From: a virus
Lineage: Duplodnaviria > Caudoviricetes
Virus record (IMG/VR): IMGVR_UViG_3300031665_000002
Span: 981-64,980 of that record
Reading direction: 5' to 3' (one strand)
Length of the DNA stretch: 64,000 nt
Part shown: positions 4,036 through 49,729 of the stretch, one piece after another
Layout: the number at the start of each line of letters is the position of its first letter
How positions within the stretch are numbered: the stretch's first letter is position 1
The notes under the pieces: model-generated
Seen by the model: the letters and a program-made list of their open reading frames with translations, nothing else
Told to the model about the DNA's origin: nothing
Databases searched by the model: none
Translations under genes and position numbers: made by a program

Positions 4036-4433
4036 GCCGCCCCCACGCCAGCCTTGCCGGTCACGCTCTCAACTCCGCGCCGAATGGATTCTTCTACCCA
4101 GCCTTCAGGCGCTTGCGGCGAATGCCCCTCGTTCAGCGCCTGGATGTAGGGGACGTTATTCGAGATCCATACATCTCCCTTTTTCACGTCGTAAACCAGC
4201 AGACGACCAATCCCTAAAGACTGCTCTAACGTGCTTACGTTCTCGCGCGCTCCGGAAACGCCCTCATGTGGCGCGCCAATCGAAACAATCCAGTTTGCCC
4301 GGCTCCACCCGGTCGCTACCGGGTTTTGCATGACAAGTTCGCCGTGAACCGCAAAGGCAACGCGCTTTACCGTGTCGGATATAACCCTTCGCAGCTTCGC
4401 AACCGTCTTGTCAGCTTCGCTTGTCGCGGCCAT
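4032..4433 (-). CDS. Tail completion/neck protein (HK97 gp10-like)
   Basis: NPVATGWSRANW and WISNNVPYIQALNEGHSPQAPEGWV motifs. Confidence 0.75.
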   Translation of the reverse strand: MAATSEADKTVAKLRRVISDTVKRVAFAVHGELVMQNPVATGWSRANWIVSIGAPHEGVSGARENVSTLEQSLGIGRLLVYDVKKGDVWISNNVPYIQALNEGHSPQAPEGWVEESIRRGVESVTGKAGVGAA

Positions 4434-4452
4434 TGGTTTCCTACCTATCGCG

Positions 4453-4962
4453 CTAAGCGGTCAGCTCAGCCCAATGCATGGCGATACCCACCGGCTGGGC
4501 ACCCGCGTTTAAATTCGTCGCCCTTATCAAATAGTCGCCAGCGTCAAGAATAAAGCTACCTTGCGGCATTGCACCGGCAACGCTCGCCAGATCATCAGAT
4601 AGCAGCGTTCCGGCGGCGCTTACCGTCGGCCCGGAGAAGGCCGCACAATTGGCCGTTTCCGTTGATGCCCGGTTTTTATTAATCTCCGCAAGCGCCGCAC
4701 CGTCTGCCGAGGTTGTCGGCCCGTCATAAACGCGCAACCGCGCCTCAGCGATGCCGCCGAGACGCGGCGACACAATCGCAATGTAACCGCTGGCAACCCT
4801 AAAGAGCATATCCATATCAGTTGCCGCGCCAAGCGTGGCGTTAACCAGGGAAGCAACGAAGGCTACGCCCTTACTCATGTAAAAACGTTCTTCTGTCGTG
4901 ACGGCGAGCAAGCCCGTTGTCTCGTCCATGCTCTTTTTTACAAAAACGCTGCTTCCGCTCAT
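4453..4962 (-). CDS. Hypothetical protein, probably virion-associated
   Basis: 169 aa, beta-rich composition, within the morphogenesis operon. Confidence 0.55.
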   Translation of the reverse strand: MSGSSVFVKKSMDETTGLLAVTTEERFYMSKGVAFVASLVNATLGAATDMDMLFRVASGYIAIVSPRLGGIAEARLRVYDGPTTSADGAALAEINKNRASTETANCAAFSGPTVSAAGTLLSDDLASVAGAMPQGSFILDAGDYLIRATNLNAGAQPVGIAMHWAELTA

Positions 4963-4977
4963 GTCATCACCTGTTGG

Positions 4978-5574
4978 TTAGACGGTTTCTGTCTCTTTGG
5001 CGTTCGCCGGTTCGTCGTATTCGTCCAGCTCATCCGGCGAAGCATCATTCAACTGCGCGCCCACCGGCTCATCATCGCCGGACTCTGCCGCGTCAAGCGC
5101 CACACCTAGCACGGGGTCAGGATTGGTTGACGCGGCGCTTTCCGGCACATCTTGTAGTGTGTCAGATAACGGCAATTCATCGCCCGTTGTCGAGGTGCTT
5201 TCGCCGCGCAATTCGGCGAGCAACGCATTTGCAGCAGCTTCACCGCGCACGTTGCGAATAAGCTTTCCGCCATGCCACACGGCGAACCAACCCTTAGCTT
5301 TTGGCACAAGGCCGCCCGCCGGATCGGTAATGGTTTCTTCTTCTTTGCCGCTGTTTTCAGCGCTTGGCGCGCTTGGCGCGGCGTTATCCGGCGCGCTTGG
5401 CGCGACATCATACGGAGGAACAATCTTGCGGCGCGCAAACATTTGGTGATAGTCGCGCTCATCCACGCCCGCGCGCGGCACCGGCTCGCCTTGCTTGTAT
5501 TCTTTGCCTGCCACAGTGATGTGGCGACGGGCGACATAAACCACTCGCGGGTCATAAACGGCTGGTAAGGCCAT
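4978..5574 (-). CDS. Hypothetical protein after major capsid gene (acidic C-terminus)
   Basis: Start reassigned to MALPAVYDP at 5574; about 198 aa. Confidence 0.55.
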   Translation of the reverse strand: MALPAVYDPRVVYVARRHITVAGKEYKQGEPVPRAGVDERDYHQMFARRKIVPPYDVAPSAPDNAAPSAPSAENSGKEEETITDPAGGLVPKAKGWFAVWHGGKLIRNVRGEAAANALLAELRGESTSTTGDELPLSDTLQDVPESAASTNPDPVLGVALDAAESGDDEPVGAQLNDASPDELDEYDEPANAKETETV

Positions 5575-18833: not shown

Positions 18834-19238
18834 CTAAACTGTTCTGCTTTCGCCGACAACGTACACCTCATGAAGAAAGGCAACAATACTTTCAATAAGC
18901 ATTAGCCTTGCCCCGTAGATATTTGCGGGCATGCATGACATAAACGCGTCAACAAGGCACATGAGCCGATGCAGCCTATATGCATAGCTCATGTAGCCTT
19001 GCCCACATCTTGAAGGGGGCGGGGAAATGTCGTGTGCGTATTTAATCAAATGATCTGTAAGACACATCGTCATCAAGTGCACGGGGCTGGCGGGCTGGCC
19101 GCTTTTACCCGTGCTTTGGTCAAGTACCGACTGAAGCGCCACATCAACGTAAAACTCGACATTGCGCCTTACTTCTTCGTATCTCCACCACTTACGCGGG
19201 GAAGTACCCCAGCCAACGCCCATTTGATCACGCAACAT
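18834..19238 (-). CDS. Hypothetical protein
   Basis: 134 aa ORF in operon orientation. Confidence 0.45.
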   Translation of the reverse strand: MLRDQMGVGWGTSPRKWWRYEEVRRNVEFYVDVALQSVLDQSTGKSGQPASPVHLMTMCLTDHLIKYAHDISPPPSRCGQGYMSYAYRLHRLMCLVDAFMSCMPANIYGARLMLIESIVAFLHEVYVVGESRTV

Positions 19239-19273
19239 TCAAAACCCCCTATTTTTCCCGAATCAATCAATGT

Positions 19274-19465
19274 TTATTCGTCCGGATAGACGTTCTTCAA
19301 AGCACCTGACACAGCCCGGCCAAGACTTACAGCGTCTTCCCTAAGACTCGCCTTCTGGTCATTGTCGCCTGTGTTTATCGCCTTTCGAATGTTTGCTTCT
19401 ATTTCTGGCGCACGCCTGCTAACGTTTCTTAAAAACGCCCGTCCTTCACTTTCTTTATTGCTCAT
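19274..19465 (-). CDS. Hypothetical protein
   Basis: Start at MSNKES; about 63 aa. Confidence 0.4.
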   Translation of the reverse strand: MSNKESEGRAFLRNVSRRAPEIEANIRKAINTGDNDQKASLREDAVSLGRAVSGALKNVYPDE

Positions 19466-19728
19466 TTTGTCCGGTTTCCTTCCTCGTTCTCTCTGCTTCA
19501 ATTTTATCAAGTGTGCGGTTTACACGGGCTCGCGCATTGTTCCTTTCAGCAATGCGCCTTGCTTGGGCGTGCAGCAATGCACGCGATTTTGAATCTTCAC
19601 TCATGTTACTAAGTCCCGCTAAAGGTTGGTGGAGTGCTGGGGGCGCAGTAGCACGCTACCCCGAAGGACGGCCCGTAGGCATCGCCCAGCCGTTTTTATA
19701 CTGTATGAGCACCCCATAACGCCGGAAG

Positions 19729-19974
19729 CTATCCGGCCACGATTGGTTGAGATTTCAAGAATTCTTCCCCTTTCCTTTTAGCTTCGCTTCGTATGAAAAC
19801 GGCCATGTACACCAAGTCGGGGCGCGTCAGCCTGTAGCCGGACTCCCCGCCCTCGATGCCCTGTATTCGCCGCTTGCCGCAGTCCAACAGCTCCGCCGCC
19901 GCCCCTTGGGATATGCCCAACGCATCGCGCCACTCTCTAAGTGTTCCGCTCCATATTGGCAGCTCGCTAGTCAT
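19729..19974 (-). CDS. XRE/Cro-family HTH transcriptional regulator
   Basis: LREWRDALGISQGAAAELLDCGKRRIQGIEGG; divergent from the early promoter. Confidence 0.85.
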   Translation of the reverse strand: MTSELPIWSGTLREWRDALGISQGAAAELLDCGKRRIQGIEGGESGYRLTRPDLVYMAVFIRSEAKRKGEEFLKSQPIVAG

Positions 19975-20054
19975 AGTAGCCCCTTTCGTCTGTTGTTATG
20001 CCGCAACAATCTGTTTATCTCACGCGAAAATCGCTAACGCAACAAAAAAAAGTA

Positions 20055-20093
20055 GCGATTTCCGCACTTTTTTATTGACGGCGCGGAAATCGC
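20055..20093. promoter_or_regulatory. Putative operator: 11-bp inverted repeat bracketing the -35 box
   Basis: GCGATTTCCGC (20055-65) and GCGGAAATCGC (20083-93), 17 bp apart; related half-site GCGAAAATCGC near 20024-34. Confidence 0.6.
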
Positions 20094-20103
20094 GGTTTAT
20101 ATT
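20075..20103 (+). promoter_or_regulatory. Strong sigma70-type early promoter
   Basis: TTGACG-N17-TATATT with upstream A/T tracts (UP-element-like). Confidence 0.8.
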
Positions 20104-20210
20104 AAAATCATAGACAGGGCGGAGAGAGGCGCGGGGCAGGAGCCCACAAATCGAACCGGGAAGCCCAGGGAACCGGGAAGGCCAACAGGCCCCGGCCAAA
20201 AAATAACCAA

Positions 20211-20408
20211 GTCTTACTTGGCGAGCGCTCTTATCCGCAACTTGGCGAAGCACTCGCAACCACCTCTCAGATGCTGGAAACAGATAACGAACGCGGAACA
20301 CAGCTCAGCGGACACGATCCGCAATCCTGGCAACCCGAATGCGGAACCTGAAGTGAAAAGAACGCTACCACCGGCCAACAGGCTATGGGAGCGCTCACCA
20401 AGTAAGAC
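20211..20408 (+). ncRNA. Candidate structured leader/ncRNA closed by a 20-bp stem
   Basis: 20211-30 GTCTTACTTGGCGAGCGCTC is complementary at 19/20 positions to 20389-408; no credible ORF between promoter and 20432. Confidence 0.5.
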
Positions 20409-20431
20409 GACTGAAACAGAAGGGAAAGACA

Positions 20432-20671
20432 ATGCAACTGAACACCTCAGACCTACCCCCAGTAACTCAACTAGCACTCGCTGAAGTGCACCTCGAAAAG
20501 CTGGAAAAAGCAATGAAAGCTGATCGACAAGACGCGGGCGCTATTCAGCAGGTTACCGACCGCATTTTGCAAGTGAGAGCGTGGCGTGGCGCTGAAGTCA
20601 TTCATGACTTCATGCTTGAAGGCGCTCGCGAATGGAGCGCTTGGTATACAAGCAGCAGGTACGCCAAATAA
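20432..20671 (+). CDS. Early hypothetical protein (cassette 1)
   Basis: 79 aa; SD GAAGGGA. Confidence 0.7.
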   Translation: MQLNTSDLPPVTQLALAEVHLEKLEKAMKADRQDAGAIQQVTDRILQVRAWRGAEVIHDFMLEGAREWSAWYTSSRYAK

Positions 20672-20672
20672 A

Positions 20673-20733
20673 TAACCGCCTCTCTCAGCCGCCCCGTGAT
20701 AGGGCGGCCTTGACGGGCAGTTAACCCGAAAAC
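20673..20733 (+). repeat. Structured intergenic repeat copy 1
   Basis: TAACCGCCTCTCTCAGCCGCCC-loop-GGGCGGCCTTGACGGGCAGTTAACCCGAAAAC. Confidence 0.92.
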
Positions 20734-20747
20734 AGAAAGGCCAAACA

Positions 20748-20942
20748 ATGGAAGTATTCAGCACACCGGCATTGCCCGCACATTGGGTTGTGAGAGATGA
20801 TAACGGGGAACAGTGGATTGTTCCGGCACACAACAGCGGGTGGAGCAAAAAGCGCCCATATCGCGGAAATTACACCCTCGAAACGGCGCTATCTTACATG
20901 CCACCAGCAATTCGCAAACAACTGTACGGCATTCCAGCCTAA
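20748..20942 (+). CDS. Early hypothetical protein (cassette 2)
   Basis: 64 aa, Trp/Pro-rich; stop codon is the TAA of repeat 2. Confidence 0.75.
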   Translation: MEVFSTPALPAHWVVRDDNGEQWIVPAHNSGWSKKRPYRGNYTLETALSYMPPAIRKQLYGIPA

Positions 20943-20997
20943 CCGCCTTTTTTAGCCGCCCTTCGGGGCGGCCTTGACGGGCAGTTAAAATCTGAAA
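20940..20997 (+). repeat. Structured intergenic repeat copy 2
   Basis: P1 has a C-TTCG-G loop; P2 arm is TCTG instead of CCCG. Confidence 0.92.
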
Positions 20998-21012
20998 GGG
21001 AAGGGCAGAACA

Positions 21013-21123
21013 ATGAAACACATGCACAACGCACTTGAAATCACCTTTTGCATCGCCATTGCAGCCGCCGCCGCAAGGTGGGGAATTTACGCCGTCGCAT
21101 ATTTGGGGTTTGCAACCCTTTAA
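21013..21123 (+). CDS. 36-aa hydrophobic (membrane) peptide (cassette 3)
   Basis: MKHMHNALEITFCIAIAAAAARWGIYAVAYLGFATL; exactly fills the space between repeats 2 and 3; good SD. Confidence 0.65.
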   Translation: MKHMHNALEITFCIAIAAAAARWGIYAVAYLGFATL

Positions 21124-21180
21124 CCGCCTCTCTTAGCCGCCCCTCACGGGGCGGCCTTGACGGGCGATTGGACCCGAAAC
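21121..21180 (+). repeat. Structured intergenic repeat copy 3
   Basis: TAACCGCCTCTCTTAGCCGCCCC-TCAC-GGGGCGGCCTTGACGGGCGATTGGACCCGAAAC. Confidence 0.92.
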
Positions 21181-21203
21181 CCGACGCACGCGGAGATACA
21201 ACC

Positions 21204-21404
21204 ATGAAAGCATCTTTTGAAATTCTACCAGGAATTCGTATTCCTTATGTTGTCGAAAAAATCAACGATAACAGACACCTCGAAATCAGTTTTTTTGATG
21301 GGAAATGTTGGGCGTCAACCACCATCGAAAACACCGGCGTTATAACGTCAGAGCTAGTTCAAACGACTGTTTTAAATTGGATAGCAAACAATCCGCTAAA
21401 TTAA
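21204..21404 (+). CDS. Early hypothetical protein (cassette 4)
   Basis: 66 aa from MKASFEIL; SD GGAG. Confidence 0.7.
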   Translation: MKASFEILPGIRIPYVVEKINDNRHLEISFFDGKCWASTTIENTGVITSELVQTTVLNWIANNPLN

Positions 21405-21463
21405 ACCGCCTCGCTTAGCTGCCCTTTGTGAGGGCAGCCTTGCCGGGCAGTTAGCCCGAAAAC
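21402..21463 (+). repeat. Structured intergenic repeat copy 4
   Basis: P1 GCTGCCC/GGGCAGC, a compensatory change. Confidence 0.9.
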
Positions 21464-21478
21464 GGAAAGGGCAGAACA

Positions 21479-21688
21479 ATGAAGCGTAACGGCTCATACT
21501 GGAATGGTGTTGCACTTGTCCGGCACATGATTTTCGACACTGAAGAAGAAGCAACACAAGCGCTAAGCCTGATCAAACCCGAAAAAGACGACCCCGACTA
21601 CTACGCCGTAACGGCGTACAACAGCGGGGATGGCTACGTGATAGAAGCCCGCGAAAAAGACGGCAATCATTTTGTTGGACTTCTCTAA
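21479..21688 (+). CDS. Early hypothetical protein (cassette 5)
   Basis: 69 aa, acidic. Confidence 0.75.
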   Translation: MKRNGSYWNGVALVRHMIFDTEEEATQALSLIKPEKDDPDYYAVTAYNSGDGYVIEAREKDGNHFVGLL

Positions 21689-21745
21689 ACCGCCTCTTTT
21701 AGCCGCGCCCTTGGGCGCGGCCTTGACGGGCGATTACCCGAAAAC
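21686..21745 (+). repeat. Structured intergenic repeat copy 5
   Basis: P1 GCCGCGCC/GGCGCGGC, a compensatory insertion. Confidence 0.9.
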
Positions 21746-21761
21746 CTGGAAGGAAACGAAT

Positions 21762-21980
21762 ATGATTACACTACACCTAATAACAGACACGTTGTCAGAC
21801 GGTAGCAAAGCTTATGGCGTGAAACTCTGTAACGGGACAGAGGCCAGCGTCGAGCTTGATTGCGTCGATGGCCCTGCCGCTTGCGTGCTAATGAGTGCTT
21901 TACACGACGCATTAAACGAGGCTGAACAACCCGCAAGCATCGGCAACGATGTGACAAAAACCGCTGGATGGACTGACTAA
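21762..21980 (+). CDS. Early hypothetical protein (cassette 6)
   Basis: 72 aa from MITLHLITD; SD GGAAGG. Confidence 0.7.
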   Translation: MITLHLITDTLSDGSKAYGVKLCNGTEASVELDCVDGPAACVLMSALHDALNEAEQPASIGNDVTKTAGWTD

Positions 21981-22035
21981 CCGCCTCTTTTAGCCGCCCT
22001 TCGGGGCGGCCTTGACGGGCGATTGGACCCGAAAC
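21978..22035 (+). repeat. Structured intergenic repeat copy 6
   Basis: P1 has a C-TTCG-G loop; P2 is CGGG-CGATTGGA-CCCG, then AAAC. Confidence 0.92.
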
Positions 22036-22050
22036 AAGGGGTAACGACAC

Positions 22051-22245
22051 ATGCAGTACTTTAAAGACGCAAGCCGCAATCAACAAGTCGAGGAAGCCGC
22101 GCGATTGGTTGCGGCGGCCAGCAAGGAATATAAAACCGAAAAAGACCCAGAAGCCAAAAGGCTTGCGGGCGTTGCTTACCAACAAGCAAGTAGTGACTTC
22201 AACGATCTTTTCGCGCGCTTGATGCGCGAAGAAGCCGCCGAATAA
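22051..22245 (+). CDS. Early hypothetical protein (cassette 7)
   Basis: 64 aa, helical. Confidence 0.7.
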   Translation: MQYFKDASRNQQVEEAARLVAAASKEYKTEKDPEAKRLAGVAYQQASSDFNDLFARLMREEAAE

Positions 22246-22257
22246 GGGGGGACAAAA

Positions 22258-22659
22258 ATGCAAAACTTTGCACTTGCCCCACCACAAGACCATGAAGTTG
22301 AAGGCGGCGCGGAACCACAACGCCTTGATGTTAAGGTGTTAAAAGATGGCAGCATCGTTGATGCCAGTTCAGGGCGGCGGTTGAGACTCACCGAGACCGG
22401 AATTGAAGACCGGGACGGCAGAGAATATGAATTGCGCCCAGCGGCTCACGCAGCCTTAAGACGCGCAGTAGAACGCGCTCAAGCCAAGAGCGCGCGCGTA
22501 ACAATGTTAGAGTACGCCGGATTGTTTCCTGAAAAAGTGCTTGGCGTAGTCGTGCTGTGCACAGTAAGCACAGTCGCTTTTCTGGAAACAGACAACATTG
22601 TTATTCCTGCTGTAATATCTATTCTGGCGGGAATAATTGCATTGAAACACAGTCGATAA
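22258..22659 (+). CDS. Hypothetical protein with two C-terminal TM helices
   Basis: 133 aa; hydrophobic C-terminus. Confidence 0.65.
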   Translation: MQNFALAPPQDHEVEGGAEPQRLDVKVLKDGSIVDASSGRRLRLTETGIEDRDGREYELRPAAHAALRRAVERAQAKSARVTMLEYAGLFPEKVLGVVVLCTVSTVAFLETDNIVIPAVISILAGIIALKHSR

Positions 22660-22685
22660 AAAAACAAGTCGTCGGAGAATCTATC

Positions 22686-23120
22686 ATGACAATTTACACA
22701 CGCGAGAAACAACTTGCGCGCCTAGTCGGCCTATGGCCAAAACAAACAGCCGACAGGCGGCCCCGCCGCATTGCGGCAAACATAGTTCTACTTCGTCAGG
22801 CCGTGCGCCATATGGCCAGCCTTGCGAAAGGCCCCCACGCATGGACGTATGACGTCAACCGGCATATGGCGTTAAGTGAGGCGCTGCGCGAGGAACTTAG
22901 ACTTCTGCGCAAGCCTCGCGTATCGCACGAAGTCGTTTATCTACAAGATGCAGCGAAAGCCCGCCTCGCGCTTCAGCGTGGCAGCGCATATCCTGGCCGG
23001 TGGGATCGGCGCTTTACACGCGCCGAGCTTTTTGAGGCTCACCGGCGAGCAATCGCCGGAGCGCGCCAAGAACGTGAATTCAGACTTCGCGAGCGCAAGC
23101 TTGCGGAAAAGGCGGCGTAA
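22686..23120 (+). CDS. Hypothetical basic protein
   Basis: Start MTIYTREKQ; HAWTYDVNRHMAL motif, recalled from alphaproteobacterial hypothetical proteins. Confidence 0.6.
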   Translation: MTIYTREKQLARLVGLWPKQTADRRPRRIAANIVLLRQAVRHMASLAKGPHAWTYDVNRHMALSEALREELRLLRKPRVSHEVVYLQDAAKARLALQRGSAYPGRWDRRFTRAELFEAHRRAIAGARQEREFRLRERKLAEKAA

Positions 23121-23178
23121 CGCTTCCTTCAAGCCACAGCGCAAGTTGTGGCCTGGGGCGAGCGCTAAGGCTCGAAAC
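23118..23178 (+). repeat. Divergent copy 7 of the structured repeat
   Basis: TAAC-pyrimidine tract-GCCACAGC-GCAA-GTTGTGGC-CTGGGG-CGAGC-loop-GCTCG-AAAC: same architecture, different sequence. Confidence 0.65.
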
Positions 23179-23201
23179 TGAGAAAACCAGAGAACTTAAA
23201 C

Positions 23202-23384
23202 ATGTACACACGAGAACAGCTTGAGGCCATGACGCGAAATGCACTTTACCAACTCGCCAAGAGCGAAAACGTGCTCGTTTATGGCAATTACACTAAATCA
23301 CGCCTCATTGACTGCATTCTAGCCAAGCAATCAAGGCCGCTTGTCCCAGAGTCAATGAGTGCACGCAGCAAAGCCCAAAGGTGA
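23202..23384 (+). CDS. Rho N-terminal-domain-like (HeH) small protein
   Basis: YTREQLEAMT...LYQLAK...V......KSRLID.IL. Confidence 0.6.
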   Translation: MYTREQLEAMTRNALYQLAKSENVLVYGNYTKSRLIDCILAKQSRPLVPESMSARSKAQR

Positions 23385-23388
23385 AGCC

Positions 23389-23580
23389 ATGGAATACGAG
23401 GAAGATAATACACCGGCGGACGTCGCAAGAAGAATAATGACAAAGAAACTAACAACAAAGGTTAGGAACGGTGAAGTAAGCATCGAAGAACTGGTTGACA
23501 ATTACATGAGAGTGTATGAACTTAAGCTAGCGTATAGAAGACACACAATAAACGCGTGCCGAAATATAGTAAGGCCGTGA
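23389..23580 (+). CDS. Hypothetical protein
   Basis: 63 aa from MEYEED. Confidence 0.5.
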   Translation: MEYEEDNTPADVARRIMTKKLTTKVRNGEVSIEELVDNYMRVYELKLAYRRHTINACRNIVRP

Positions 23581-23657
23581 AGCTATAACGAAAAATGGCG
23601 GGCAATTTGCCCGCCAGTGTAACCCCATCTTCCAAAAAACCTGTGAAAGGATGAATC

Positions 23658-24722
23658 ATGGATAGCAAAGCGAGCGCATGGGCGCAAGCCATAACTGGCT
23701 TTATCATAGCCGGGCTTGTCGCCGCCTGCGTATACAACGACATTATGAACAACGTCGAATACGGGCAAAACATCTCAACAGAGATGGCGCTAGCCCTTGG
23801 CGTATTCGGCGCGGCTATCGGGATAATCCCGTTTGCGTCCGGCTTCGTCGGATGGAACCGCGTTTTTACCGCGGCGTTTGCCGTATGTGTTGCAATCACC
23901 GTCTACGCATCAGCGACAGCCTACCTTAACAAGCAGGGCGAAAACATCGTGCACGCCGCCGACAAGGCGACGGCGCATAAAAGCGCCCTGGCCGACGCCA
24001 GCGCCGCACGCGCCGAGTTGTCGAATATCCGCGAAAAGGGCGACGTTGCAGCCCTAACCGCTGCCCTCAAACTGGCGCAAAACCGCGCCCGCACCGAGGA
24101 AGCAAACGGCGGCTGCGGCGAACGATGCCGCACCGCTTACGCAAGCGCTGCAAGCTTGCTTGAGCGTATCGCCAACGCGAAAGCCCGTGACGCCGCTCAA
24201 AAACGCTTAATCGTCGCCAAGGCCGACGTCGCCAAAGGCGGCGCAATGGTGGACGCCGGGGCGGAGCTTATCGCCCGGCAGATTGGCGGAGAACCTGCCA
24301 ATATTGCGCAGACTCTCTCAGCGATCATGGCCGGGCTGGTCATTATCGCAACGCAACTTGTGGCCGCGTGCGGCCACCAAGCGGCGCGGCTGATTTCCAG
24401 CGGACTTGGCGCTATTTTTACAGCCAGCAAAAAGCCAAAGGCTAAGGCGCAAACCTCCCCGCCCCTTCAGAAGGGCAAAGGCGGACGCAAAGCGAATATC
24501 ACGCGCGAGCAAGCGCTTGAGATCCTGCGCAAACAGGCCGAGGCAGCAGGCGGGCAAATTATCGCCAGCGGCGCGGCAATCGCCCAATCGCTGGGCGTTG
24601 GTCGCTCGACCGTGTGCGACCCAAAGAAAGGCTGGCTTGCCTACTGGCAAAAAACCGGCTTGATAACAGTTGAAAGTAAGGGGCGCAAAACCGCGCTCAC
24701 AATCACGGCGAAAGCCGCTTAA
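23658..24722 (+). CDS. Membrane protein with coiled coil and C-terminal HTH
   Basis: Three N-terminal TM segments, coiled coil, TM at about 215-240, then SGAAIAQSLGVGRSTV HTH. Confidence 0.7.
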   Translation: MDSKASAWAQAITGFIIAGLVAACVYNDIMNNVEYGQNISTEMALALGVFGAAIGIIPFASGFVGWNRVFTAAFAVCVAITVYASATAYLNKQGENIVHAADKATAHKSALADASAARAELSNIREKGDVAALTAALKLAQNRARTEEANGGCGERCRTAYASAASLLERIANAKARDAAQKRLIVAKADVAKGGAMVDAGAELIARQIGGEPANIAQTLSAIMAGLVIIATQLVAACGHQAARLISSGLGAIFTASKKPKAKAQTSPPLQKGKGGRKANITREQALEILRKQAEAAGGQIIASGAAIAQSLGVGRSTVCDPKKGWLAYWQKTGLITVESKGRKTALTITAKAA

Positions 24723-24737
24723 CGGAGTGTAAAAACT

Positions 24738-24872
24738 ATGGAACGCGATGATTTTGAAGTTCTGAAAATCACCTTCGCGGAGCCAAAAGAGCAACGCAAG
24801 AGCCGCGTCATCGATAAAGTGATGGCGTGGCTCGCTAAGCTTGGCCTTAGAATAGCGCAGCAACGAGGCTAA
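24738..24872 (+). CDS. Small hypothetical protein (44 aa)
   Basis: Manual ORF MERDDFEVLKITF...; SD GGAG. Confidence 0.4.
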   Translation: MERDDFEVLKITFAEPKEQRKSRVIDKVMAWLAKLGLRIAQQRG

Positions 24873-24941
24873 ACGCCAGCCGACCAAGAAGCAAGGCGAC
24901 GCCCAATATACCACCCCACCACACCACACTGGCGAAACGTT

Positions 24942-25208
24942 TCATATTCCAATTTTTGCCATTACTATTTGGCCAAGGATGGAAACTATCGCCAGAAGCC
25001 CCCCAACCACTAGCTTCTTCATGTCGGAATCCATTGACTCCATCGACCGGGAAACGTTCATGTGCAATGTCGTCAGCGTCAAAAGGCGTGCTTCCAGGGA
25101 GTGGACACGACGCGCCAGCCCTGGAACTTCTTCCAGGTTGCGCGCTATATGCGCCTGACGTTCTTCTAGGACCGTCAACCGCCGTTCCATCTCCAAATCG
25201 TGCAACAC
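24942..25208 (-). CDS. XhlA/holin-like coiled-coil protein with C-terminal TM
   Basis: ERRLTVLEERQ...coiled coil plus LVVGGLLAIVSILGQIV. Confidence 0.5.
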   Translation of the reverse strand: MLHDLEMERRLTVLEERQAHIARNLEEVPGLARRVHSLEARLLTLTTLHMNVSRSMESMDSDMKKLVVGGLLAIVSILGQIVMAKIGI

Positions 25209-25265
25209 GTTCAGTATTCCACATTAGTTTTGCGTTTGTAATTAAACTCATAACCATGTCCCCCA

Positions 25266-25886
25266 CTATCGCGAGTTGCCGTTTTTGGCAAGCACATGGC
25301 CATCAATGGCCCCCGCAACGGCGAGCGTCCGTGATGCGCGAGCATCAGCCGCGCTAGCTGTTTTTCCGGCCCGCAATGCGGCTTGCCGTTGTTTATGAAT
25401 TTCTGAATAGATTTCGTATTCCCGCAGAAGTACCCACGCAAGCGCGCGAGTTGAACCGACAGCCGCACCGTAAGCTATCAGCGGATCATCGCTATTAGAA
25501 ACCAGCGCCCCCCAATCAACGAAACTATGTTCAGTTTCGCCGCTTTCCATGCGGGCAAAATACTCCGCCTGATCGGCGACCCCGCCGCGCATGTATCGCT
25601 TGATTATCCAGCGATAGGCGGAAACCTCAAAATTCATATAGGTTTCAAAGGGAACCCCCCGAAGGGCAAACGCCGCATAACGTCCGCGAGGAACGCCGGA
25701 ATGAAAGGAAACGACGCGGTTTCCAGATGCAAGCTGCTGAGCTTCATACCATCTAGTTAGAATATCACGCTCTTGTTGAGTGCAAGAGCCTTTCATGTAC
25801 TCCATCGGGCTTGCTGGCGGCCCATCATCCGGACTTAACGGCAGTATTTCGCCACCTACTACCACCCCACAAAGCGCTTGAGTCAT
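25266..25886 (-). CDS. Hypothetical protein
   Basis: 206 aa downstream of the initiator. Confidence 0.6.
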   Translation of the reverse strand: MTQALCGVVVGGEILPLSPDDGPPASPMEYMKGSCTQQERDILTRWYEAQQLASGNRVVSFHSGVPRGRYAAFALRGVPFETYMNFEVSAYRWIIKRYMRGGVADQAEYFARMESGETEHSFVDWGALVSNSDDPLIAYGAAVGSTRALAWVLLREYEIYSEIHKQRQAALRAGKTASAADARASRTLAVAGAIDGHVLAKNGNSR

Positions 25887-25895
25887 ATGTCGCCC

Positions 25896-27275
25896 CTATT
25901 CCGCAACAAGATTAACTGATTCCCCTCGGGAATCATCCCCTGTAAGCCCAAACTCGCGCAGAATCTCCCCAGGAACAAGACACTTTTCTGTACCAATTTG
26001 GGCCCCCCATTCACTCGGCCAATGTTTCTTGCCGCCATCCTTCCACGCTTTGACGCGAAACCGCCACCGCGTCAGCTCAAGCGAAAAAATGTCAGCTTCG
26101 AATTCAGCCAGAATGTCACCCGGAACCATGCAACCAGTTTTCCCAGGTTCTGGCCCCCATTCCGACGCGTTCCAAGCGAGATATTGCCCCGTGGCGGGAT
26201 TGTGGCGCTCATGCTCAGACAGCGCCATGTATTTGCGGTAATGCTCCATGCGAAAGCGCCACAGCTTAACGGCGCTATCCGCCTTTTGCACATCTTGTGG
26301 TGGGTCAAACTGACCTTCAAGCAACGCGTTAAACGTACTTTCCATGATCACCGCTTCAAGCGTTTTCGGATGCCATCCTGATCGTGTAGGAAAAACCGCA
26401 GACGCCAGCTTTTCAAGCCCGGCGCGCCATTCGGCAGGCTCGCGCTTAAACAAACCGTCAAGCAGCTTCGCACGCCTGACGGTGATCGTGCGGGCTCTAA
26501 GCATCCCGCAGCGCCCCGCGTGCTTGTTGTACAGCGCAACGGCCTCTTCGCGGCGACTGACGATAGACGCTTCTTTTCTGGCCTGCGCGGTTTGGGCTGG
26601 AGTCTGGGGCGTATCGACACCTAACCGCCCTTGCTTGCTACCCCGTGCCGCCTTTTCTTTTTCTGCCTGTTTGGCTTCATTATTTTTTTGCTGCTGCTGC
26701 CGCTGCAAGTGATCCGATTTAGGATCGCTTGTAGCAGCTTCAAAGGGGGACGTTCCAAGGGGAACGTTAAGTTGAGACTCTGGAGTCTCAACCGTTGAGA
26801 CTCTGGAGTCCCAACCGTTGGGACTCTGGAGTCTCAACGAGGATTCAGCCGTTTTTTCTGGATTCTCGTCGATTTCGTCGTCAAGTTGCGCGTCAATAAC
26901 GGCTTGTGACGGCTCGCCCCTTGCATCAAGTAAGACGCGGTAAACACAGATTGAGCGCATCCCCTTCTTTCTGCGTCCAGCATCAACCGCCGCCTGGTTG
27001 ATATCGCGCTTCTCAAGATATCCGCGCTTTTCGAGATTCCCTATGGAGCGATTAACGGAACGGCGAGCAACGCCCAGCTCCTCAGCCATTCGCGCTTGAT
27101 TGCGGAAACACCAGCCGTTTTGATCGGTATGACAGCCCAAAAGCGCCAATATGCGCAGATCAAGTGTTGTAAGGCTGGCGTCACAGACGGCCACAGCCGG
27201 AATAATAGAAAACCTCGGCCCCACAGCTACCCCCATTTTTCGGTTGCCATCGCCAAAGAAATCAACTAAACACAA
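25896..27275 (-). CDS. Replication initiator (lambda O-like, N-terminal winged HTH); start may be 27236
   Basis: RILALLGCHTDQNGWCFRNQARMAEELGVARRSVNRSIGNLEKRGYL; adjacent to dnaB; contains iterons. Confidence 0.8.
   Translation of the reverse strand: MCLVDFFGDGNRKMGVAVGPRFSIIPAVAVCDASLTTLDLRILALLGCHTDQNGWCFRNQARMAEELGVARRSVNRSIGNLEKRGYLEKRDINQAAVDAGRRKKGMRSICVYRVLLDARGEPSQAVIDAQLDDEIDENPEKTAESSLRLQSPNGWDSRVSTVETPESQLNVPLGTSPFEAATSDPKSDHLQRQQQQKNNEAKQAEKEKAARGSKQGRLGVDTPQTPAQTAQARKEASIVSRREEAVALYNKHAGRCGMLRARTITVRRAKLLDGLFKREPAEWRAGLEKLASAVFPTRSGWHPKTLEAVIMESTFNALLEGQFDPPQDVQKADSAVKLWRFRMEHYRKYMALSEHERHNPATGQYLAWNASEWGPEPGKTGCMVPGDILAEFEADIFSLELTRWRFRVKAWKDGGKKHWPSEWGAQIGTEKCLVPGEILREFGLTGDDSRGESVNLVAE
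26771..26838. repeat. Three tandem 22-bp palindromic iterons (putative replication origin)
   Basis: GTTGAGACTC-TG-GAGTCTCAAC x3 with a 23-bp period; one substitution each in units 2 and 3. Confidence 0.85.
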
Positions 27276-33658: not shown

Positions 33659-34774
33659 TTAAACCCTCATCGGCATAAGAACATAAAGCACACCATCATC
33701 ACCAGAATCTCTGATAACGGCGGGCGCTGAAGGTCCAGACATTGAAAACGTCACAAACTCCCCGCCAATCTGGGCGAGCAGATCGGCGATGTACCGCGCG
33801 TTAAACCCTATCTCAAGCGCTCCGCCTTCATAGGTAACCGGCAGACCTTCCACCGCGTCGGCGTTCGTGCCGCTTGCCCGTATCGTCAACTCATCATTCG
33901 ACACGCAAAACTTGACGGGAACACCCGAGGCGTCAGACACAACGGCTATGCGTCCAACGGCCTGCGAAAGCAACTCGCAATTAGCTTGCATGGGGTGGCC
34001 ATCTTCAGTCGGGATTACGCGCATGTAATCCGGGAAGGTTCCGTCAATGAGCTTTGACACAATGCAGATGTCGCCAAACGCAAGCCTTACCTTGTTTGGC
34101 GACATCTGCACGAGGATTTCACCGCGAACCCCGGTCAACAATTTAATGGCCTCGCGGACCATTTTTCGCGGAAGAATTACGCCGGGCATCTCTTGCGCGC
34201 CTTCTGGCAAGGGCACATCTTGGCGCGCAAGGCGGTGGCCATCTGTCGCGACGCCGCGCAGGCGCCAGCCGTTGTCCGTATCGGCGGCGTGCAAATAGAT
34301 GCCGTTAAGATAATAGCGGGTTTCGTCGGTTGACATTGCGACTTGAGCGCAATTGAAAACTGCCAGCAACTCAGAAACCGGCAATCTAAACCTATGCGGC
34401 ATGATGCCTAGACTCACGTCCGGAAAGTCTGTAACCGGCAAATAGAATAAATTGAACCTCGACCGGCCAGACTTGACGGAAACTCGCATTGCCTCCGGAT
34501 CATCGGCAAATGCTACCGTACCGCCGCCAGAAAACCGCCCAACAATCTCACGCAATGTGAATGCATGAAGCGTTACGGCCCCTGACTCTTCAACCTCACA
34601 CTCAACAAGCTCTGAGATTTCCATGTCAAGGTCAGTGGCTTTCAGCCTCAAGCCGTCGTCGCTGGCGTCAAGTACAACATTAGCCAAAATCGGAATGGTG
34701 TTGCGCTTTTCAACAACGCTGGTAACGCGCTGCAATGCCTTGAACAAGACATCTTTTTCAATCGTAAATTTCAT
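33659..34774 (-). CDS. dnaN: DNA polymerase III beta sliding clamp
   Basis: 371 aa; VEKRNTIPILANV, ATDLDMEI, STDETRYYLNGI, VATDGHRLA, SKLIDGTFPDY.RVIP, YVLMPMRV. Confidence 0.97.
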   Translation of the reverse strand: MKFTIEKDVLFKALQRVTSVVEKRNTIPILANVVLDASDDGLRLKATDLDMEISELVECEVEESGAVTLHAFTLREIVGRFSGGGTVAFADDPEAMRVSVKSGRSRFNLFYLPVTDFPDVSLGIMPHRFRLPVSELLAVFNCAQVAMSTDETRYYLNGIYLHAADTDNGWRLRGVATDGHRLARQDVPLPEGAQEMPGVILPRKMVREAIKLLTGVRGEILVQMSPNKVRLAFGDICIVSKLIDGTFPDYMRVIPTEDGHPMQANCELLSQAVGRIAVVSDASGVPVKFCVSNDELTIRASGTNADAVEGLPVTYEGGALEIGFNARYIADLLAQIGGEFVTFSMSGPSAPAVIRDSGDDGVLYVLMPMRV

Positions 34775-35409
34775 AGCTCACACGCCCTGCTTATTTTCAT
34801 GGAATCTTCGCCGCTAACGCTGCCAATGTACCGAAACACGGACGTTATGCTAGACAGCCCGAGCAATTCGCGCACAGCCTCAGCATTGCCGGTCTTTTGC
34901 ATAATATGCGCGGCGCGCGTGCGGCGTAGAGATTCTGTTCCGTAATCAGTTGGATCTAACCCAATCGCGGCGGCCCACTGCTTCACAAGGCGGCTGTATT
35001 GTCTGGGCGTAATGTTTGATTTGGTGGCGTGCCTGCCGGTGAAAATGTACTCTTTTCGCTTCTTATCCGTTAACGCTATCCACTCCGCCAGCGCACGCGC
35101 TGTATTGTCAGAGAGTGAACACTTTATAGAGCGCCCCAAGCTTGCCGATTTAACAGTTATGTTGTCAGCAACAACGCCCTTCACAAGAACATCTGAAACC
35201 CTCATAGAAAGCAAATCAGACGCATGAAGCATTGTATCAATTGCAGTGTTAAACAATGCTGCGTCTCTAATGTCTTTCCATTCATTCCCACCATAAAGAA
35301 ACGTTCTAATCTTAACTACTTGCTTATGAGTAAACGCCTTACGTTGACCAACGGTAACGCCCTTATTCCACGCAGACTTTTTAGCGTTTTTTGACGCTTT
35401 CTTTCTCAT
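34771..35409 (-). CDS. Tyrosine recombinase-family protein, catalytic residues degenerate
   Basis: WNKG..VGQ, RDAALFNTAID, RQYSR.VK.W...IGLDP..YGT.SLRRT, RY.G; R>H, H>E and H>L substitutions. Confidence 0.8.
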   Translation of the reverse strand: MRKKASKNAKKSAWNKGVTVGQRKAFTHKQVVKIRTFLYGGNEWKDIRDAALFNTAIDTMLHASDLLSMRVSDVLVKGVVADNITVKSASLGRSIKCSLSDNTARALAEWIALTDKKRKEYIFTGRHATKSNITPRQYSRLVKQWAAAIGLDPTDYGTESLRRTRAAHIMQKTGNAEAVRELLGLSSITSVFRYIGSVSGEDSMKISRACEL

Positions 35410-35457
35410 TTGATACCCCCTTGTTTGAGTCAATAGCTGACATATACGCCAAGTGTG

Positions 35458-35754: not shown

Positions 35755-36753
35755 CTAACGACTGCTTTGTAGCGTTTCAAGCTCGACGGCGGCAAACATG
35801 CCCGCATCGTCGGAAATCCGACGCTTAGCCATGTGCGCATAATCCGAATTTAGCTCGATAAGAACCGCGTTTCGCTTAAGCTTGTCGGCCACAAGCCCCG
35901 CCGTTCCAGCTCCGCCAAACGGATCAAGGACCGTCCCACCGGCTGGGCAACCCGCTCGAATACAAATCTCTGCAAGCGCCTGCGGGAACGTCGCAAAATG
36001 CGCCTCCGGAAATGCTTCCGTCGCAATCCTCCACACCGAATGCCGATTGCGACCGGGCTTTAGCTCCGCCTCTTGATATTTCGCCGAGGTGCGCCCGCTA
36101 CGGTGAATAGTCCCGTGTGCGCCTTCCCCGCAGTCGTAATTCCCCGGAACCTTTACGCGCTTGCTGGCCGCGCCCAATGGTGCGGCCTCATTGTCATTTT
36201 CGCGAATGGCGTCTTGATCGTAGTAATAGCGCTCAGATTTCGTAAAAAGAAAAATATGCTCATGGGCTTTCGTGCAGCGATCACGGCACGATTCCGGCGT
36301 AGGATTGGGCTTGTACCAGATGATTTCTTGCCGCAGCCACCAGCCAGACGCGCGCAAGGCAAAGGCGAGCATCCAGGGCGCGCCGATAAGATCCTTTGCC
36401 TTGATACCAGTAGACGCGCACGTTGAATTCCCTCGAAGGTTTGGCGCGGTAAATTCCCTATTGGCGCGTTGGCCGTTTTTCCCCTGCCAGCCAGCGCCGC
36501 CGCGCGACGCGTAGGAGTCGCCATAGTTAAGCCAAAGCGTCCCATCTGGGCAAAGAACGCGGCGCACCTCGCGGAACACACAAACGAGTTTGTCTATATG
36601 CACTTCCAATGTTTTTTCAGCGCCTATCTGGCCCTCAACGCCGTAATCACGCAGCCCCCAATATGGCGGACTGGTAACGACGCAATGCACGCTGTTGTCA
36701 GGCAGCGTTGCCAGCCCGGCCATAACATCAGCGTTGATAATGCGAACGGTCAT
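35755..36753 (-). CDS. DNA methyltransferase (N4-cytosine/N6-adenine, beta class)
   Basis: VVTSPPYWGLRDYG, HFATFP, VLDPFGGAGT; start MTVRII at 36753. Confidence 0.92.
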   Translation of the reverse strand: MTVRIINADVMAGLATLPDNSVHCVVTSPPYWGLRDYGVEGQIGAEKTLEVHIDKLVCVFREVRRVLCPDGTLWLNYGDSYASRGGAGWQGKNGQRANREFTAPNLRGNSTCASTGIKAKDLIGAPWMLAFALRASGWWLRQEIIWYKPNPTPESCRDRCTKAHEHIFLFTKSERYYYDQDAIRENDNEAAPLGAASKRVKVPGNYDCGEGAHGTIHRSGRTSAKYQEAELKPGRNRHSVWRIATEAFPEAHFATFPQALAEICIRAGCPAGGTVLDPFGGAGTAGLVADKLKRNAVLIELNSDYAHMAKRRISDDAGMFAAVELETLQSSR

Positions 36754-37096
36754 CTTCTGACAGCACCTTTGCGGCTTCCGTGTCGGCCCAATCCCTGATT
36801 TGATGCGCAAGCTCTGGATTTTCGCCTTCTATAAAATCAGCATATTTGCGCATCGCCGCCCTTGACGCCTTGGCGTAAGCGTCATTTCCGCCCGGCTTCA
36901 GCACAAAGTACTTCATCAACAATCCGGTTGATTCAACATCCGATTCCGCCAGCGCTTGCGAAGCTGCGCGCGCTGCATTTTCCCAGAAATCCCGGTCATC
37001 TTTAGAGAGGCGATCAAATGGGGGAATACAATCCCGTGGTAAGTCCGTGACCTTCTCATAGGTAAGTTGCCCGAGTGTTTTACGTTTATCGCTCAT
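36728..37096 (-). CDS. Hypothetical protein
   Basis: Start MSDKRKT; MKYFVLKP..ND.YA.ASR.AMR.YA. Confidence 0.6.
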   Translation of the reverse strand: MSDKRKTLGQLTYEKVTDLPRDCIPPFDRLSKDDRDFWENAARAASQALAESDVESTGLLMKYFVLKPGGNDAYAKASRAAMRKYADFIEGENPELAHQIRDWADTEAAKVLSEDDRSHYQR

Positions 37097-44117: not shown

Positions 44118-45095
44118 ATGACAAAGCAAACCACCACAAAGAAGCCTAGCGCACCACGCAAGCGCGCAAGGGCCAGTTTTGGCCTTCAGTCAACCGAAAT
44201 AGACGCCCGCAAATCCAGCATAGGCGCAAGCGATGTGCGTATCATCTGCAATGGGACAGACGAACAGATTGAAAGACTCTGGCGAGAAAAGACGGGGAAG
44301 GCCGCGCCCGACGATCTGTCGGACAACATTCACGCGCAATTCGGGCACTTTATCGAAACCTTTCATCGGATGTGGTTCGAAGGCCGCGCCAACAACACTA
44401 TTATCAAGGTCAACAACCGCGTTGAAGGCGAAGGCGAGCTTTACGGCTCACACGTCACCCTCGACGGCTTCATAAACAAGCTGGAGCCGTTCGACACCGG
44501 CGCGGAAGATTTCGAATTGATGTGGACATGCCCGAAGCCAGCGCGCGCGGTGCCAGCCGTGTTCGAGATGAAATGGCGGAACGGCCATCAATTTAGCCCG
44601 GACAACCAGACGGCAACATTTTTGCCCCAGATCCACCATGCAATGGCGCTTACCGGCACGGATTACGCGGTGCTTTCAACGTTCACGAGCAATCTAAAAA
44701 TCATAGCCCGCGTGGTGAAGTTCAATGATGATTATTGGACAAAGGTTCGCGCGCGCGTTGACGCATTCGTTGCAAGCGTAAGGGCGGAAACCATGCCCCA
44801 AAGTTTTCCCCCACTGAACGCCAACGCGGCCACGCAAAAGACAATCTTGCAAACCGTCGATATGATGCAAACCACCGCCGCGAATATTTGGACGTTCTAT
44901 GCTGGTGAACTCATCGGCAACCAGCCCACGCCAGATGAAAAGCTTAAATTAACCGCGATTGAGAAGGCCAAGAAAGAACTAAAGGCCGTCATCGGAAAGG
45001 ATGTTGGCAAAGCGCACGGCGGCGGCATTTACACCAAGCGAGACGGGCGCGGAGCTATTTCTTTCTACAACGACAAAACCGACGAACGCCTATAA
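44118..45095 (+). CDS. YqaJ-like viral recombinase exonuclease
   Basis: RKSSIGASD...LWREKTG...G...E, TLDG, EMK, PQIHHAM motifs. Confidence 0.85.
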   Translation: MTKQTTTKKPSAPRKRARASFGLQSTEIDARKSSIGASDVRIICNGTDEQIERLWREKTGKAAPDDLSDNIHAQFGHFIETFHRMWFEGRANNTIIKVNNRVEGEGELYGSHVTLDGFINKLEPFDTGAEDFELMWTCPKPARAVPAVFEMKWRNGHQFSPDNQTATFLPQIHHAMALTGTDYAVLSTFTSNLKIIARVVKFNDDYWTKVRARVDAFVASVRAETMPQSFPPLNANAATQKTILQTVDMMQTTAANIWTFYAGELIGNQPTPDEKLKLTAIEKAKKELKAVIGKDVGKAHGGGIYTKRDGRGAISFYNDKTDERL

Positions 45096-45105
45096 GGGGG
45101 AAACG

Positions 45106-45831
45106 ATGGATAACGCAAACGCAATGCCGCCAGCAATCGCGGCGGCAATATGCAGCATAATGCAAAAAAAGCTCACCGCAGAACGCGGCGAGCAAGACAC
45201 CCGCGACGGGCGCGCCTATAGCTGGGCGTCCGTTGATGATATTTACGAAGCAGTAAGCGCGGAGATGGCCGCAGCCGGGCTTATCTCTGAAATGATCGCA
45301 TGCGGAAAGCCGGAATGGATAACGATCAACGACGCGGCGCAAGGCGGCGAACGGCAGGCGCTCAGCCTGACATACCGATTTCAGATCACAAACAGAGACG
45401 GCGAGCGCTACGCCGACCCCGACAACTTGTGGCCTATCGTGGCGTGGTTTGAAGGGGCGACGACGACCGCCGCCGCTCGAAGCCTTGCGCATAAACAAGC
45501 CCTGCGCGACCTATTCAAAATCAGAACGGTTGACCCAACGCTTACCATGAACGGAAAGGCCGAACAACCAGCCGCCACAGCCGCGCCAGCGGCAACAAGG
45601 GTGTTAAAGCCAAAACAACCACAAGAGCGATTAATGCTTTCCGAAGAAGACAGCGCCGCAAGGCGCGATGAAATCATAGAAAAGTTGAAAGCAGCAGCGG
45701 GAAGGAAGAAGGGCGATGCGCGCGCAACTGCGCTTAAAAACGCTTTTAGAGCTAACGCTGGCGGCATAGGCCGACTTACTCAGGCCGATAGCTCCGCCAT
45801 AACTACCGCCTATAGCGAGCTATTGGGATGA
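45106..45831 (+). CDS. ERF-family single-strand annealing protein
   Basis: YSWASVDDIYEAV...MAAAGL...A.S.A.KQALRDLF.I.T; follows YqaJ. Confidence 0.7.
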   Translation: MDNANAMPPAIAAAICSIMQKKLTAERGEQDTRDGRAYSWASVDDIYEAVSAEMAAAGLISEMIACGKPEWITINDAAQGGERQALSLTYRFQITNRDGERYADPDNLWPIVAWFEGATTTAAARSLAHKQALRDLFKIRTVDPTLTMNGKAEQPAATAAPAATRVLKPKQPQERLMLSEEDSAARRDEIIEKLKAAAGRKKGDARATALKNAFRANAGGIGRLTQADSSAITTAYSELLG

Positions 45832-49565: not shown

Positions 49566-49729
49566 ATGTTGGCTAATGGCGCAAAACCCCGCTCGCCATC
49601 TTGTGACCCCGCGCCAACCGGAAGACATTAGCAGCGCTTGCGAAAAATGTCTGCGTCATCTTGGCAACAAGCATCTGGATAACGTCAATTAATACGGCTT
49701 GGCTGCAACGAATCTGGCATTTTTGCGAG

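Follow-up and report, generated by a model that had tools for sequence, protein, structure and literature searches.

The window analysed here (64,000 nucleotides (nt) of + strand coordinates, nearly the whole of the phage record IMGVR_UViG_3300031665_000002, which has 64,980 base pairs (bp) and direct terminal repeats) contains a repeat at 20673-23178. This repeat is a real, uncatalogued structured element, present in seven copies in one operon. Each copy, below called a unit, runs from the UAA stop codon of one small gene to just ahead of the Shine-Dalgarno (SD) sequence of the next, and by their predicted fold the units appear to be a new family of intercistronic RNA structures in an early polycistronic mRNA. 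Our tentative reading is that they may be processing and stability hairpins comparable to the RNase III sites of T7, and that they also act as recombination joints.

To our knowledge, the way in which phages express long series of tiny early genes and still exchange them easily is poorly understood, and no such signal has been described in this lineage of, very probably, alphaproteobacterial phages. The unit is a concrete RNA motif at exchangeable junctions. It would tie the architecture of the mRNA (processing, stability and insulation) to the plasticity of the genome.

Seven units in one operon

Six near-identical units share the core GCCTTGMCGGGC (at 20707, 20971, 21154, 21437, 21720 and 22009, all on the + strand), and the 64,980-bp record has no other copy of this core. 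When a covariance model is built from copies 1-6, it also detects copy 7, a diverged one, at 23117-23178 (24 bits, E 2e-4). The model finds no further + strand site in the window beyond copies 1-7, and its matches on the - strand are the same hairpins in reverse reading. The original prediction placed a structured element in the sense strand of an early polycistronic operon and suggested a covariance model as a check. Both hold up: the model retrieves copy 7 as well as held-out units of a related phage.

This related phage, the Logan contig L054, shows 82-84% amino-acid identity and was found with the neighbouring proteins of 354 and 144 amino acids (aa). It has five units (u1-u5) between small genes. 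Relatives came from protein searches only, and the units of the window phage and of L054, twelve in all, form the comparison set used below.

A unit consists of a pyrimidine strand (S1) after the stop codon, a GC-rich hairpin (P1), a purine strand (S2), and a small alternative hairpin (P2) formed by S2 with a short downstream segment (S3). The units of the window are:

20673..20733, + strand: unit c1, between the open reading frames (ORFs) 20432-20671 and 20748-20942; S1 UAACCGCCUCUCUCA, P1 of 7 bp with a 7-nt loop, S2 CUUGACGGGCAGUUA, P2 CGGG/CCCG, then AAAAC; 77.8 bits
20940..20997, + strand: unit c2, begins at the TAA stop; 7-bp P1 closed by a c(UUCG)g loop, degenerate P2; 73 bits
21121..21180, + strand: unit c3, begins at the TAA stop; P1 of 8 bp with a UCAC loop; 83.1 bits
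21402..21464, + strand: unit c4, with C-G changed to U-A in P1 and UU/GA to GC/GC in the lower stem; P2 of 5 bp; 79.1 bits
21686..21746, + strand: unit c5, P1 extended by a paired GC insertion, CUUG loop; 76.4 bits
21978..22035, + strand: unit c6, the reference; S1 21978-21992, P1 21993-22010, S2 22011-22021, alternative P2 22016-22031, followed by SD AAGGGG at 22036-22041 and ATG at 22051; 79.4 bits
23118..23178, + strand: unit c7, a diverged subfamily; S1 CGCUU-C-CUUCA pairing with UGGGG-C-GAGCG, P1 GCCACAGC/GUUGUGGC with a GCAA loop, P2 CGAGC/GCUCG; 24 bits, E 2e-4, missed by a sequence-only model

The orthologue of c7 is unit u5 of L054. Copies 1-6 form a mosaic: c2 and c6 have a common P1, c3 and c6 a common 3' part, and c1, c2 and c4 a common CAGTTA.

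Six of the seven window units start exactly at the stop codon of the upstream ORF, which is the TAA within the repeat; in copy 1 this TAA lies one codon past the true stop. At the other end, every unit stops a few bases ahead of the SD of the next gene. TAA is the stop codon at all 12 units of the two phages, compared with 53% in the rest of the genome, and it adjoins S1.

No unit was found in IMG/VR (four DNA patterns), in the JGI metagenomes (one pattern) or in the GTDB genomes (one pattern). The matches in these collections are single GC-rich coding sequences without the hairpin, and none is supported by the structure model described below. Further, neither blastn against phage records nor a related-locus search with two neighbouring proteins gave a match. 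The comparison with Rfam called for by the original prediction yields no counterpart at the gathering threshold over the 64-kb window; a permissive scan returns ilvH alone, on the - strand (19.8 bits for a gathering score of 55.1, E 1.5).

The predicted fold is one irregular hairpin

The unit is predicted to fold into a single irregular hairpin of 18-23 stacked layers: a lower stem, an internal loop and the GC-rich P1. In the lower stem, S1 (UAAC-C-GCCU-C-UU, after the stop) pairs with S2 (GA-C-GGGC-R-GUUA, 3' of P1). Between the lower stem and P1 there is a 3x3 internal loop (UUA/CUU), which is 2x2 or 1x1 in relatives, and there are also 1x1 mismatches.

In the original prediction the main fold was a three-way junction or a pseudoknot. 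However, RNAfold returns the extended hairpin as the minimum-energy fold of 10 of the 12 units. The two exceptions, copy 1 and u4, come out as a three-way junction in which S1 pairs with the SD region, and copy 1 goes back to the hairpin once its downstream coding sequence is included over 15 nt. RNAalifold, run on copies 1-6, predicts the lower stem and P1 independently. When P1 is enforced, the stretch from the stop codon to S2 folds with -18 to -33 kcal/mol, and the lower stem forms in all units but u5, where P1 lengthens to 14 bp and P2 forms instead. The alternative pairing earlier proposed for the 5' UAACCG is correct as far as UAAC/GUUA goes. This pairing is, however, the outer end of the lower stem, whose remainder (S1 CGCCU-C-UU with S2 GA-C-GGGCG) had been missed.

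P1 drifts in sequence while staying paired. It is fully paired in all 12 units, with about 10 different sequences and loops of 3-8 nt; in L054 every P1 differs from the others and measures 7-14 bp. The compensatory changes first noticed in P1 (copy 4 GCTGCCC/GGGCAGC, the paired GC insertion of copy 5, and GCCACAGC/GTTGTGGC in copy 7) are all present in the sequence, and so are the tetraloops, c(UUCG)g in copies 2 and 6 and GCAA in copy 7. For the fold of copies 1-6, lower stem included, 92% of the cells pair, compared with 34-50% when the partners are slid. Four pairs change on both sides, and the observed covariation score is reached by 4 of 500 shuffles.

The lower stem shows the same behaviour. 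Over its seven pairs and 12 units, 90.5% of the positions are paired (42-62% in the slid controls), a value reached by one of 500 shuffles. One of the four pairs changed on both sides in copies 1-6 belongs here: in c4 an A-to-C change, which turns TTGAC into TTGCC, is matched by a T-to-G change in S1.

P2 is found in 10 of the 12 units, with 4-6 bp, and is missing in c2 and u2. The forms CGGG/CCCG and, in copy 7, CGAGC/GCUCG agree with what had been proposed, whereas the CGGG/UCUG of copy 2 is not predicted to fold. At one position of P2 most units have G-C, whereas u1 has G.U and c7 and u5 have A-U. As P2 (CGGG/CCCG) and the lower stem need the same GGG of S2, the two are mutually exclusive. 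In c7 and u5 a G-to-A change in S2 is accompanied by C-to-U changes in both S1 and S3; since the change in S2 is matched in S1 as well, both helices seem to be kept.

A structure model (R1) and a sequence-only model (R2) were both trained on copies 1-6 and used to score units that had been held out. R1 gives 30.7 bits for u3, 19.4 bits for u1 and 15.7 bits for u4, where R2 gives 10.5, 7.8 and 4.5 bits. Unit c7 obtains 24.0 bits from R1 and is not found by R2. Some sequence is retained in the units of L054, namely S1 (UAACGCCUCUUUC or UAACGCUUCC), GACGGGCG and CCCGAAAAC.

All copies lie in sense orientation in one operon, downstream of its sole promoter-like site. Between c7 and u5 there are three substitutions in one arm of P1: on the + strand 8 pairs are kept, only by means of G.U, while on the - strand the same substitutions leave one to two mismatches.

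A possible role in processing and protecting the early mRNA

RNase III substrates typically span two helical turns, and internal loops can limit the cleavage to one strand, which leaves protective 3' hairpins (PMC1540722). The units resemble such sites in two ways: seven of them lie between ORFs behind one promoter-like site, and their predicted fold is a quasi-continuous helix of about two turns with an internal loop. The RNase III-like role suggested in the original prediction thus fits in position and in predicted geometry. T7 R1.1 is cut by an alphaproteobacterial RNase III, according to PMC6121014.

If the units are processed in this way, the hairpin of about two helical turns would present a lower stem made from S1 and S2, then the internal loop, and then a P1 that is free in sequence. 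If the cut fell in or close to the internal loop, the 3' end of the upstream cistron would retain a protective hairpin. A cut on the 3' side would free S2, and whenever S1 is unavailable S2 would pair again with the short downstream segment to give the small P2, just 5' of the A-rich leader and the SD. P2 would then stand at the new 5' end of the downstream cistron. Each small gene could in this manner be expressed as its own unit, regardless of its neighbours. Such a processing model, we infer, would make use of every conserved part of the unit.

The T7 early sites (R0.3, R0.5, R1, R1.1 and R1.3) likewise form a set of related hairpins that separate the genes of a single early polycistronic mRNA. 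They have about two helical turns with an internal loop, and in both cases the upstream cistron would keep a 3' hairpin (general features in PMC1540722). In contrast to the T7 sites, to which they have no sequence similarity, the units are known from their predicted fold and belong to a phage whose host is very probably an alphaproteobacterium. Their hairpin begins directly with the stop codon, S2 of the lower stem can alternatively fold into the small P2 hairpin, and they mark gene insertions and deletions between relatives. If the units are RNase III-type sites, the T7 paradigm extends to a distant phage and host.

Several observations weigh against this interpretation. The comparison covers two genomes with 12 paralogous or orthologous units, many of which arose recently by copying from one another, and the shuffle statistics therefore make them look more independent than they are. 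Cognate S1/S2 pairs have no clear advantage over non-cognate ones (the energy matrix is not diagonal), because any pyrimidine tract pairs with any purine tract. The sequence conservation of S1, S2 and CCCGAAAAC exceeds what pairing needs, and could reflect a protein partner. Finally, in most units the - strand RNA is as stable as the + strand RNA in minimum free energy; energy alone therefore neither fixes the strand nor excludes a DNA hairpin.

Gene exchange at the units

In the window, genes and units follow one another as W5-c5-W6-c6-W7-W8-W9-c7-W10, while L054 has W5h-u2-W7h-u3-W9h-u4-new gene-u5-W10h. Three junctions thus differ by whole unit-bounded genes. First, W6 (ORF 21762-21980) together with one unit is present in the window and missing in L054. 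Second, L054 alone has a 217-nt insertion consisting of a unit and a 46-aa gene, bounded by the 12-nt direct repeat TAACGCTTCCTT. Third, W8 (ORF 22258-22659) sits at the slot that in L054 is taken by the hairpin core of u3 (722-806).

This comparison shows the units as places where genes have been gained, lost and exchanged between related phages, be it as a second role or as a side effect. They can serve as exchange sites because every junction carries the same 12-60 nt. The window phage encodes a recombination module:

44118..45831, + strand: YqaJ-like exonuclease (PF09588, 27.2 bits, cut-off 22) and a weak ERF-like annealing protein (PF04404, 21.2 bits, below the cut-off of 25), from Pfam

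The exonuclease and the weak ERF-like match, if the latter is real, could recombine 40-60-nt repeats such as the units, which makes recombination between such short repeats plausible.

The 133-aa product of W8 has a C-terminal hydrophobic segment. Its gene, the only one in the array joined without units, fills the slot exactly between TAA and AAAACAAGTCG.

The array is absent from the four further related loci L055, L056, L062 and L063. In L056 a TnpB/Cas12f-like gene (OrfB_IS605, 3961-5397) lies in a more distant relative of the neighbourhood of the 354-aa gene, where units do not occur. The protein searches returned almost no other homologues of the small array ORFs. The 144-aa ORF (22686-23120) differs in having homologues in four bacterial loci (L057-L060; 42-53% identity over at least half of the length), so this early gene has cellular relatives. 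There the homologues adjoin an HTH_3 regulator, DUF6456 and a Bac_DnaA_C protein.

Alternative explanations

Instead of being processed, the units could be switches gated by the ribosome; this is the leading alternative, a refinement of the coupling proposed in the original prediction, but we judge it unlikely. A terminating ribosome would melt the lower stem, because S1 lies within about 13 nt of the stop codon; S2 would move into P2, and the initiation or stability of the next cistron would be altered. Such a switch would be a new regulatory principle. It agrees with the mutual exclusion of the lower stem and P2, with the linked changes in c7 and u5 that keep both, with the G-C, G.U and A-U series at one P2 position and with the constant TAA next to S1. 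When S1 is masked, P2 becomes the minimum-energy fold in c1 and c7. However, these are only two of the seven window units, and P2 is weak and lacking in two of the 12. Masking S1 (the 14 nt a ribosome would cover) shifts the predicted accessibility of SD and start from 0.44-0.70 to 0.30-0.73 in no consistent direction. The unpaired probability of the SD, which has these same ranges without and with masking, speaks against the earlier idea that the SD is sequestered and then released by the terminating ribosome.

More doubtful still is a wider version, in which every junction is a ribosome-operated switch that sets the cleavage, protection or initiation of the next cistron, or in which the units are the RNA face of a phage cassette system that lacks an integron integrase. 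If it were true, the ribosome-operated unit would be a standard plug-in connector, allowing early genes to be swapped freely while their expression is kept.

The pattern of gene exchange raises the question of an element that acts as DNA, either an attC-like or other site-specific recombination site or a mobile palindrome of MITE or REP type, with the RNA fold being incidental. We regard this as improbable. Single genes are gained and lost like cassettes exactly at units, one insertion is bounded by the 12-nt direct repeat, hairpin core and gene alternate in one slot from TAA to AAAACAAGTCG, the phage has a 220-aa tyrosine recombinase, and the - strand folds as well as the + strand. All this is in line with a DNA element. 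Yet homologous recombination is itself expected to give insertions and deletions between identical 12-60-nt repeats, and the YqaJ-like and weak ERF-like (below cut-off) proteins could bring it about. Further, there is no copy outside the operon or on its other strand, nor was one found in IMG/VR, the JGI metagenomes or the GTDB genomes.

Integron attC arrays also join promoterless small genes of one orientation by imperfect palindromes, with single-gene gain and loss, and the UAAC...GUUA ends of c1, c2 and c4 resemble the attC R''/R' sites. However, the GTTRRRY/RYYYAAC cores are not conserved: GTT occurs in only 3 of the 12 units (the others have ATT, CTA, GAG or GCG) and RRRY is not kept. Neither attI nor IntI, nor any integrase of that size, is present; no recombinase lies beside the array, the one at hand being 12 kb away in the replication operon. 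Also unlike attC sites, the units hardly differ from each other and are confined to a single phage lineage.

REP and Correia repeats are transcribed intergenic palindromes, as the units are, and can stabilise upstream mRNA or be cut by RNase III. They differ in being dispersed genome-wide in both orientations, whereas the units occupy one operon in one orientation and are anchored at stop codons.

A binding site for a protein, on RNA or DNA, is in our view even less probable; it could be a nut-like boxA with a hairpin, a stoperator-like repressor site or the site of a phage endoribonuclease. Both phages retain the sequences of S1 (CGCCUCUUU), GACGGGCG and CCCGAAAAC, in contrast to the freely drifting P1, and all sites have one orientation relative to transcription. 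S1 also resembles boxA (CGCUCUUUA) and is followed by a hairpin, as in lambda nut. Against this, the pairing of S1 with S2, together with the two roles of S2, accounts for the conservation of both, and the changes in c4 and c7 are compensatory, which half-site recognition does not need. The P1 loops (UUCG, UCAC, CUUG, GCAA, or 6-8 nt) vary in length and sequence in nearly every unit, unlike the conserved loop of boxB, and seven nut sites in 2.5 kb would have no known precedent.

The ESAS/SAS elements of Cluster K mycobacteriophages consist of imperfectly matching inverted repeats, about 17 bp long, around a variable spacer, and are of unknown function (PMC3203893). Like the units, they share one orientation and directly precede the ribosome-binding region of some non-structural genes. 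Sequence and host are unrelated, however: the arms of ESAS keep a consensus while P1 of the units drifts with compensation, and the units have no invariant ribosome-binding box like the 13-bp SAS.

In the PeSL cassettes of T4-type phages a sigma-70 promoter (-35, N17, -10) follows a stem-loop (PMC2839356, PMC4122927). A composite of this type, with CTTGAC as the -35 box giving each gene its own promoter, is very improbable here. The order of stop codon, stem-loop, CTTGAC, SD and ATG agrees with it, the operon promoter likewise has TTGACG, and both are repeated intergenic stem-loop modules between small ORFan genes. Both are also linked to insertions, deletions and replacements between close phages (cf. 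PMC2839356, PMC4122927), here at three junctions. However, at 16-18 nt there is no -10 box but the SD (CAGAAA, AGGGAA, CGGAAA and others), no promoter-like site lies within the array, and no U-tract follows P1. TTGAC itself lies inside the helix and is missing from 5 of the 12 units, with GCGAC, GCAAC, TTGAA and TGGGG in L054. Since TTGAC and GTT are not conserved in L054, the units can be classed neither as PeSL-type promoters nor as attC sites.

A self-cleaving ribozyme, also suggested originally, is hardly credible: a conserved structured RNA at gene boundaries is the sole point for it, while no ribozyme of Rfam matches up to an E of 5, most conserved bases are paired within what is a simple hairpin, and the 3x3 internal loop is down to 2x2 or 1x1 in relatives.

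The units are not intrinsic terminators, since P1 is followed by CUUGAC, GCGAC or CUGGGG and not by a U-tract; no unit is among the terminator-like sites. Iterons, parS and pac sites, CRISPR-like arrays, readthrough or frameshift stimulators and bypass of the T4 gene 60 type were set aside on grounds of spacing, of position, or of each gene having its own SD and ATG.

Genome context

The window phage is a siphovirus. Its portal protein shares about 41% identity with the portals of Roseobacter phage RDJL Phi 1, Rhizobium RHEph phages and Erythrobacter phages, and its DnaB is 45% identical to the counterpart in Caulobacter phage DMCA. It also encodes a GcrA-like protein and a CcrM-type methylase. 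Together these relatives and genes indicate that the host is very probably an alphaproteobacterium. The GcrA-like protein (49661-50122, + strand) matches its profile in the C-terminal part only; with the N6_N4 DNA methylase (35755-36810, - strand) it makes up a set of cell-cycle-type regulators typical of alphaproteobacterial phages.

The units belong to a block of small + strand genes at 20.4-25.2 kb, flanked by structural genes and by replication genes, both on the - strand. Its features are:

19729-19974, - strand: helix-turn-helix (HTH) gene, 81 aa, HTH_31, divergent from the operon promoter
20075..20103, + strand: strong sigma-70-like promoter TTGACG-17-TATATT of the operon with all units, 10 of 12 consensus matches
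20432..23384, + strand: array of ten small ORFs, 36-144 aa, none with a PHROG family
20432-20671, 20748-20942, 21013-21123, 21204-21404 and 21479-21688, + strand: array ORFs 1-5
21762-21980, 22051-22245, 22258-22659, 22686-23120 and 23202-23384, + strand: array ORFs 6-10

The promoter at 20075-20103 is the only promoter-like site on the + strand within 19000-26000 in a promoter scan. Its -35 box is bracketed by the palindrome GCGATTTCCGC/GCGGAAATCGC (20056-20093), which is likely the operator of a Cro/CI-type switch. The leader from the promoter to the first ATG (20104-20431, about 330 nt) is non-coding. Within it, 20211-20230 and 20389-20408 form a 20-nt inverted repeat of 95% complementarity, which would enclose a domain of about 200 nt. 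This leader could be a processed non-coding RNA or a regulatory leader.

Two junctions in the array, 22245/22258 and 22659/22686, have no unit. The 36-aa product of the ORF at 21013-21123, between c2 and c3, is mostly hydrophobic and may be a small membrane peptide.

A tyrosine recombinase of the Phage_integrase family (220 aa, 34771-35433, - strand, 63.6 bits) lies inside the replication operon. It adjoins the gene for DNA polymerase III beta (dnaN-like, 33659-34774), with no attachment site or array beside it.

Between the small-gene array and the 354-aa gene there is a GC-rich 9-bp hairpin (23596-23616). It is terminator-like on the - strand, as A-runs precede it and T-runs follow, and a resembling hairpin is kept in L054 at about 1767-1790.

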